Below are positions 10,817 through 10,920 of a DNA stretch of 47,466 nucleotides, piece after piece. Numbering within the stretch: position 1 is the first letter of the stretch; every line of letters begins with the position of its first letter. The position numbers and the translations under genes were made by a program. The stretch is from NCBI GenBank assembly GCA_964568535.1, contig CAZMPQ010000002.1:1-47466 (forward strand), read 5' to 3'. This DNA is from an uncultured Candidatus Saccharibacteria bacterium (lineage in GTDB: Bacteria; Patescibacteriota; Minisyncoccia; UBA6257; 2-01-FULL-56-20). Below the pieces are notes generated by a model. It worked only from the letters and a program-made list of their open reading frames with translations, did no database searches and had not been told where the DNA came from.

Positions 10817-10920
10817 CCCGAATTACGAATAGACACGAATCACGAATACAAGAATATGAACACCATGAGATACACCATTCGTAATTATTTTCAATTCGTA
10901 TATTCGGGATTACTCTCATG
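10817..10920 (+). repeat. ACGAAT/ATTCGT inverted-repeat element; its 3' arm is the conserved ATTCGTATATTCGGGATTACTCTC-ATG module
   Basis: CCCGAATTACGAAT (10817-10830) pairs with ATTCGTATATTCGGG (10894-10908). 10891-10920 is 29/30 identical to 33491-33520. Confidence 0.85.

Follow-up and report, generated by a model that had tools for sequence, protein, structure and literature searches.

Near-identical modules on unrelated start codons are probably the terminal inverted repeats of a small GxxExxY-associated mobile element

Why should one short sequence recur, almost letter for letter, on the start codons of genes that have nothing else in common? The question is raised by the window, by which we mean the whole 47,466-nucleotide stretch of DNA analysed here, contig 2 of the genome of an ultra-small bacterium (829 kb in 58 contigs, 57% GC). 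This is a Liptonbacteria-like member of the Parcubacteria; its relatives by SecY bear the labels Liptonbacteria, Parcubacteria or Paceibacteria. As an earlier note on this DNA had claimed, three unrelated start codons carry the module: the ATG at 10918 (rplX), at 16216 (adk), and at 33518 (rplJ). The modules at 10891-10920 (rplX) and 33491-33520 (rplJ) have an identity of 29/30, and the adk copy (16193-16218) departs from them by small indels and one substitution. Below, G000 is the genome under study, G001 and similar labels are relatives, and C5 and similar labels are G000 contigs.

What the copies share is a 22-nt core, ATTCGTATATTCGGGA-W-Y-ACTC, the first 16 nt of which occur exactly at 10894, 16194, and 33494, with gaps between core and ATG of 2, 0, and 2 nt, respectively. 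The 16-mer ATTCGTATATTCGGGA has three exact matches in the window and six at up to three mismatches, compared with 0.26 in shuffled sequence. An ATTCGT unit does lie 16-17 nt 5' of TATATT in all three copies, as the note had observed; bare ATTCGT is not enriched in the window (28 observed versus 32 expected). The core forms the end of an arm of about 40 nt, built of two diverged tandem copies of an 18-nt unit of ATTCG heptamers and terminating in CG(G/C)GA-W-Y-ACTC. A Pfam search of the window confirms L14, L24, Adk, L10, and L7/L12, and Rfam at the gathering threshold yields five tRNAs and nothing else. The arms and the genes behind them are as follows.

4941..5015, plus strand: interrupted arm behind the rpsJ terminator, consisting of ATTCGTATATTTGTCGCAATTCGTAT, an insert of about 33 nt, and TTCGGGATTACTCCTC
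10809..10847, minus strand: reverse-oriented variant arm, ATTCGTGATTCGTGTCTATTCGTAATTCGGGAGGCACTA on the minus strand; the CTA at its end supplies the stop codon of rplN, TAG (10809-10811)
10809..10917, no strand: whole inverted-pair element in the rplN/rplX junction, a long imperfect RNA hairpin
10877..10917, plus strand: forward arm before rplX, with upstream half ATTCGTAATTATTTTCA, core ATTCGTATATTCGGGATTACTC (10894-10915), then TC; 41.2 bits
10918..11223, plus strand: rplX (L24), the gene 3' of the forward arm; Pfam PF17136/KOW
16125..16152, plus strand: canonical promoter TGGACA-N16-TACAAT, 10/12 match, about 64 nt from the adk ATG
16167..16215, plus strand: adk array of three tandem units, ATTCGCTAT / ATTCGTATATTCGCCAAC / ATTCGTATATTCGGGAACACTC; 24.1 and 39.5 bits; ATG at 16216
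16216..16800, plus strand: adk; Pfam PF00406
33476..33517, plus strand: forward arm before rplJ, ATTCGTAGATTCGTCTCA + ATTCGTATATTCGGGAATACTC + TC; 41.3 bits; ATG at 33518
33518..34024, plus strand: rplJ (L10), followed by rplL; Pfam PF00466, PF00542

The three window sites are a sample of a 33-copy family. A position-weight matrix of the core, with a family threshold of at least 24 bits, finds 33 matches in the genome; the range from 15 to 24 bits is empty, and the control, the reversed genome, stays below 10 bits. As a 13-mer the core is the commonest repeat of the genome. The upstream half of each copy repeats the core in tandem and in diverged form, as either ATTCGTATATTATTTTTG or ATTCGTAATTCGTGCAC. 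Two minor variants, ATTCGCATTATTCGCGATTACTCC (about six copies, one before atpA) and ATTCGTAATTCGGGA (two copies, one being the reverse arm at rplN), add about eight copies and bring the total to about 40, spread over more than 20 contigs.

The copies were classified against neighbouring ORFs with a crude ORF model. Seventeen of the 33 run up to within 0-2 nt of the ATG that opens a coding ORF, and another 10 have the opposite orientation and end on the stop codon of a neighbouring gene, overlapping it by 6 nt in five cases, by 3 nt in three, and otherwise by 0 or -2 nt. The stop codon, TAA or TAG, comes from the ATTACT or ACTA of these arms as read on the opposite strand. The remaining six are the inner tandem unit at adk, two copies read through by the neighbouring ORF, a copy at a contig end, a degenerate copy, and a copy facing 980 nt without a called gene. 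The two main classes differ at position W, which is A in 13 of the 17 start arms versus 1 of the 10 stop arms (p = 0.0013). In the genome-wide search of the motif against gene starts that the earlier note proposed, 17 of 33 copies abut starts and about one third face away from any start. A fourth window copy (4941-5015), which had been taken for an orphan, turns out to be an interrupted member of the stop-abutting class. It faces the 3' end of a minus-strand ORF (5007-5432, without a Pfam match), its GGGATTACTC end holds the TAA of that ORF (5007-5009), and ten other reverse copies in the genome share the layout.

The surrounding rpsJ-rplC gap (window 4897-5555, 630 nt) contains an intrinsic terminator at about 4901-4938, the interrupted arm, and the minus-strand ORF 5007-5432, in which a GGAGG-like box precedes an internal ATG. 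The start of rplC is apparently at about 5556 (MMILGKKLNMTQIW) and not at the GTG at 5528. The roughly 1 kb 5' of rplJ (window 32437-33517) holds no recognisable gene, and ORF 32581-32913 has no Pfam match. Genes rplK-rplA are absent before rplJ in the window, which fits the Parcubacteria subgroup without uL1 described in PMC9297842.

Most arms are paired, forming about 11-13 outward-facing inverted pairs of 84-144 nt between co-directional genes. Arms occur inside housekeeping operons (L14/L24, S6/SSB, atpE/atpF, PilB/PilC, PilT/PilC, RpiB/Rpe, and RF2/GxxExxY/FtsE), after genes (PilM, L17, and L20), and before genes (atpA, GroES, YchF, RecO, FtsE, Adk, and L10); none lies directly 5' of a tRNA or tmRNA. 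Conservation is as strong in reverse arms as in forward ones. Two genes, prfB (C5:4756-5778) and dus (C11:7819-8850), read through a reverse arm, and RF2 and Dus acquire the same tail, ...PEYTNQK*, from it. By eye, neither the flanks of the pairs nor filled versus empty sites display a target-site duplication.

At rplN/rplX the spacer is 106 nt, as the note had it, compared with a 4-nt overlap in G001, and the long imperfect hairpin is real (fold -26.6 kcal/mol, z = -3.2). The pairing of its upstream 'ACGAAT arm' stands; the identity of that arm has been corrected to a reverse-oriented variant copy of the module (10809-10847), laid out like 10 other stop-abutting arms. A hairpin of this stability raises the possibility of action at the RNA level, whereby the folded arms in read-through transcripts would set the upstream stop codon beside the downstream AUG and permit reinitiation without a Shine-Dalgarno sequence, or offer an RNase III site that leaves a near-5'-terminal AUG, or act as a 3' stabiliser or insulator. 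Stops 0-6 nt inside one arm and an ATG 0-2 nt past the other would suit this, as would the conservation of both arms and the absence of an anti-Shine-Dalgarno sequence in this host. Against it, several arms have no partner to fold with, both forward (adk, rplJ, ychF, recO, and ftsE) and reverse (after L17, after L20, and others); where arms are paired, the stem base is mismatched between them and shows no compensatory changes; a hairpin would not require the sequence identity of 33 copies; and complementarity to 16S rRNA is not significant. We regard action through the hairpin as rather unlikely.

Relatives show how the junctions look with and without the arms. The main form is present in 4 of 41 related genomes and the longer variant in 12 of 41, being abundant in G003, G005, and G018, again as minus/plus pairs. 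In up to about 60 relatives, the rplN/rplX and secY-adk junctions are in many cases 1-20 nt wide or hold a canonical TAnnnT-N6-ATG, and in other relatives they hold species-specific inverted pairs of their own that end at the ATG. G003, a member of the same genus (SecY 78% identical), has about 25 longer-variant and 11 main-form arms, and 8-9 of 12 orthologous genes have one. At adk, pilC, and ssb the form agrees with that in G000, at rplX and ftsE it does not, the G003 copies at groES and atpA are degenerate, and the reverse arms at S6/ssb and pilB/pilC are conserved between the two genomes. The S6/ssb junction is filled in G000, G003, G005, G018, and G010; G004 has a canonical leaderless promoter there, and in G001 and G002 the junction is empty. 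At rplJ, G005, G018, and G025 have their own ATTCG-type arms.

The closest relative, G001 (proteins 67-98% identical), has 0 copies of module-like sequence in 801 kb. Its orthologous starts lie in overlapping or 1-4-nt junctions or behind canonical promoters, with one decayed module relic: rplN and rplX overlap by 4 nt (GTATGA), the rplJ junction reads TAAcATG and that of ssb TAAccccATG, and recO, atpA, and one further gene each overlap the gene before them. At adk, G001 reads ttcgcgcTACAATgc-ctgt-GTG, a TACAAT-N6-GTG arrangement at leaderless distance; in G000 the same TACAAT, with a TGGACA -35, remains upstream, and the module array lies between it and the ATG. Apparently, insertion of the array has separated an older promoter from the start codon. 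The comparison of orthologous junctions that the note called for finds G001 tight at the same sites and more distant relatives with the same or sister arms at the same genes. Across the relatives, the arms are gained and lost as a unit and leave clean empty sites, yet at some genes they persist for long; the empty sites of G001 could also represent clean loss rather than gain in G000. At groES, G001 (contig 2) has a sigma-70 promoter, TTGACG-N17-TACATT, and a CIRCE-like inverted repeat, TTGGCAATC-N9-GGTTGCTAA, where G000 has an arm pair.

The empty orthologous junctions are 0-4 nt wide, so any insertion must touch both codons, and contact with starts and stops could follow from a target junction width of 0-10 nt and from nothing else. 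The arms would then be a purely selfish, MITE-like repeat without a promoter, and the genes behind them would depend on upstream promoters and on internal initiation of a Shine-Dalgarno-independent kind. The older, intact promoter upstream of the adk array agrees with this, as does the failure of the sigma-70 scan to call the arms. It is harder to reconcile with essential, highly expressed genes placed behind 100-nt inserts in a host whose first cistrons are leaderless, with the persistence of arms at orthologous genes across genera, with a YACT(C/T) common to different arm families, or with canonical leaderless promoters at the same positions in relatives. A promoterless repeat is in our judgement rather unlikely.

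Whether an arm could drive the gene behind it has to be judged against the expression signals of the host. The 3' end of its 16S rRNA (C20), ...GGATCAATTAAAC, also written ...GTGGATCAATTAAAC, lacks the CCTCC anti-Shine-Dalgarno, a loss known for a Parcubacteria subgroup (PMC9297842). TAnnnT hexamers peak 6-7 nt before ATG (61 and 66 cases versus 5-45, mostly 10-35, elsewhere), and about 100 genes have TGnTAnAAT at exactly this distance; aligned on the hexamer, these house promoters read TGnTAtAAT, with no -35 signal or conservation. Leaderless mRNAs are thus the rule in this genome. The rRNA promoter is TTGACA-N16-TATAAT, about 390 nt 5' of the 16S gene; tRNA promoters look canonical, and none uses the module. 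Three house promoters in the window are given as examples.

18115-18160: house promoter
36461-36506: house promoter
46093-46138: house promoter

The modules resemble the leaderless promoters of the genome in lying immediately 5' of ATG without a Shine-Dalgarno sequence. Their TATATT is nearly invariant, conserved in 30-34 of 34 copies per position, and satisfies the -10 rule (A2, T6). It ends 11-13 nt before the ATG versus 6-7 nt in house promoters, so that the mRNA would not be strictly leaderless, against the house rule. Modules have neither a TG extension nor a TTGACA-like -35 at 16-18 nt, the sequence being TCG-TATATT, and the conserved CGGGAWYACTC that follows TATATT sets them further apart from the leaderless house promoters. 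The shorter ATTCGTAATTCGGGA and longer ATTCGCATTATTCGCGA variants keep no clean -10 in the same register. Relatives hold canonical leaderless promoters at the same spot, for example, at adk in G001 and ssb in G004. Some copies sit behind terminators, which makes them the sole promoter candidate there; the rplJ arms of G005, G018, and G025 are so placed. The start-proximal YACT(C/T) recurs in different arm families.

The earlier suggestion of a promoter giving a near-leaderless mRNA is therefore in keeping with the position of the 17 start-abutting copies, but not with ATTCGT as its -35 element: house promoters do without any -35, the rRNA promoter has a TTGACA, and the modules go uncalled in a scan for the sigma-70 consensus. 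We infer that the arms have promoter activity with a leader of 3-7 nt, the position of the start being likewise a prediction. The conservation of TATATT-CGGGA-YA, the unpaired arms, the terminators, and the promoters of relatives all point to an outward promoter near YACTC. A promoter does not account for the equal conservation of reverse arms, which may instead reflect a hairpin in the RNA, insulation or protein binding.

Other assignments were rejected. AATACT as a -10 would place the invariant A at -11 on the variable W position. CGGGA as an ECF-type -10, with the start at the A of ATG, fails in that the position of the matching -35 differs between the types of upstream half and the arm-to-ATG distance in G025 varies from 6 to 15 nt. 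For pairing between module and 16S rRNA, the best duplex (-19.6 kcal/mol versus -17.5 +/- 1.8 for shuffled modules) is not significant, and neither is an AUACUC:GAGUAU match to 16S helix 26, which is partly inside a stem.

The arms could instead be a fixed, non-mobile cis-regulatory site, a promoter or operator of a dedicated sigma or transcription factor that keeps the sequence uniform across a growth-related regulon of ribosomal proteins, ATP synthase, pili, chaperonin, and SSB. Arms stand at the same housekeeping genes in G000, G003, G005, G018, and G025, both orientations are conserved, and the matrix scores are bimodal, as with highly specific sigma factors; the G-rich discriminator may also recall stringently controlled promoters. 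Yet none of the three small (ECF-type) sigma factors co-varies with the modules (G003, G005, and G025 lack the C15 sigma, G005, G018, and G025 lack the C26 sigma, and the C7 sigma is universal), and no module lies upstream of any of these sigma genes. The closest relative has lost or never had the copies and keeps the same genes in tight junctions, one third of copies face the 3' ends of genes, and one copy with the same arms bears a gene. We find a fixed regulatory site unlikely, if slightly less so than action through the hairpin or a promoterless repeat.

That gene-bearing copy is a full-length element of about 490 bp (C5:4299-4786) between prfB and ftsE, in which two outward-facing arms surround a nuclease-fold GxxExxY gene.

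C5:4299-4320, minus strand: arm on one side of the G000 GxxExxY gene
C5:4765-4786, plus strand: arm on the other side

The encoded GxxExxY / PDDEXK_3 protein (C5:4342-4746, 134 aa; PF13366, TIGR04256) keeps the D...ExK motif, has no sequence match among solved structures, and is present in G000 and G003 and not in G001. In the literature that we searched on GxxExxY / PDDEXK_3, the family is listed only as 'Unknown' (PMC3424549). PF13366 is found in 9 of the 10 genomes with at least two modules versus 4 of the 31 others (41 genomes; Fisher p = 1.8e-5). In G003, G018, G025, G023, and G015, the GxxExxY gene lies between ATTCG-type arms proper to each genome, whose outer end adjoins the ATG that comes next, and in G005 an arm is directly beside one copy of the gene. 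The gene in G038, G027, G020, G022, and G031 and the second G005 copy are flanked by inverted arrays too, but the heptamers are different ones (CGCTGAT, CGCAGAT, CGCGGAT, and CGCGGAA). Inverted heptamer arrays flank the gene in all 12 loci inspected by eye, and a repeat finder, run on eight loci, found the gene enclosed in all eight by inverted repeats of 19-52 nt, spaced 370-490 nt apart. The arms are thus linked to the GxxExxY gene both physically and statistically. We take the GxxExxY protein for the candidate mobilising enzyme of the element; it could instead be cargo.

Some GxxExxY loci, L270 (G020:C50), L271 (G005:C7), L267, L268, and L273, have the gene and heptamer arrays in frame inside long host ORFs, with an open frame of 561-888 aa running through them. 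The host ORF in G020 is LepA, interrupted between the GTPase G1 and G3 motifs by what looks like an in-frame insertion element. G000 also has inverted 7-nt arrays without a GxxExxY gene, (GTGTCAG)n facing (CTTGACA/CTTGATAC)n, and it has (CATGAAA)n and (TTTGCCC)n arrays besides; these various arrays are at C53:1435-1500, C32:1335-1400, C8:1893, and C18:12328. Two palindromes were seen besides. The first, TATGTTACAATTGTAACATA, has eight copies (C5:28572 and 29263, C12:8594 and 13436, C16, C38, C39, and C9), two of which flank a 194-aa protein with a winged-helix N-terminus and a Cas2-like C-terminus that is present in G003 and not in G001. The second, GGATGTATGCTATAGCATACATCC, has six copies clustered in 2 kb at C21:10544-12560.

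The family, its geometry, and its gain or loss between relatives are shown by the sequences. The explanation that we favour, and hold to be probable though far from certain, is that the modules are terminal inverted repeats belonging to a family of small GxxExxY-associated mobile elements and that the arm probably carries a promoter. On their layout, the gene-less pairs and single arms are best read as resembling MITEs, derivatives of the full-length element. The elements would insert in the tight stop/start junctions of housekeeping operons. With junctions 0-4 nt wide, one outer end touches the upstream stop and the other the downstream ATG; with no anti-Shine-Dalgarno and with leaderless mRNAs, an insertion that breaks translational coupling would be tolerable only if the element restores downstream expression. 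Each arm would do so as an outward promoter, with TATATT as the -10, CGGGA as a G-rich discriminator, and a start at the A of YACTC, and the resulting mRNA leader would be 3-7 nt. Counting against this explanation, reverse arms are as conserved as forward arms and have been kept between G000 and G003, which is unexpected for inert terminal repeats.

More tentatively, the GxxExxY / PDDEXK_3 proteins in general may be site-specific nucleases that mobilise heptamer-array mini-elements, each variant matched to its own heptamer, the ATTCG branch being a stop/start cassette. This broader proposal is possible but less than likely. The ATTCG branch, in hosts without an anti-Shine-Dalgarno, would split operons between stop and start and supply a near-leaderless promoter, and sister branches would insert in frame within genes such as lepA.

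Known systems offer partial likenesses. REP/BIME repeats accompany RAYT proteins (Y1 HUH), a single-copy transposase gene being flanked by repeats that are also dispersed without the gene, often as inverted pairs. The arms are alike in that one small nuclease or transposase gene is flanked by repeats found gene-less across the genome. They differ in that the partner here has a PD-(D/E)XK fold (GxxExxY, TIGR04256) and not an HUH fold, single arms are non-palindromic, copies number in the tens and not hundreds, and the arms abut start codons. The Correia elements of Neisseria (CREE/NEMIS) are inverted-repeat elements of about 100-150 bp with many intergenic copies (Snyder et al. 2009, PMC2649163); a promoter may arise at one of their ends or at both, they form RNA hairpins, and their presence or absence alters the expression of adjacent genes (PMC2649163). 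A central IHF site and RNase III cleavage of the transcribed hairpin also characterise Correia elements. Arm elements are likewise short, intergenic, multicopy, inverted-repeat, and hairpin-forming. Unlike CREE, which has a TA target duplication where none was seen by eye at arm elements, they consist of heptamer arrays, abut operon-internal stop and start codons with their ends, include a copy with a PD-(D/E)XK-fold gene, and reside in a host that lacks pairing between Shine-Dalgarno and anti-Shine-Dalgarno sequences. Putative mobile promoters have been catalogued as near-identical upstream sequences before unrelated genes, within and between genomes (PMC3575422). That survey is a catalogue of similarity, whereas the arms have a defined inverted-pair stop/start architecture and a candidate mobilising gene. 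The literature that we searched held no description of this arm family, and no paper in it was found to deal with leaderless mRNAs in Parcubacteria or the candidate phyla radiation, or with their promoter motifs or MITEs.

For the biology of this organism, the family provides concrete sites at which expression without ribosome-binding sites can be studied, about 20 start codons standing behind one invariant 22-mer. The arms explain oddities of annotation, namely, 100-nt gaps in ribosomal-protein operons and the '...PEYTNQK' C-terminal tails of RF2 and Dus. The GxxExxY / PDDEXK_3 family gains a specific candidate DNA partner, inverted heptamer arrays. The pattern suggests that mobile elements can survive in the tight operon junctions of a leaderless genome by bringing a promoter with them and, if this is true, insertions that carry a promoter would be one way in which operons are rapidly split and rewired.
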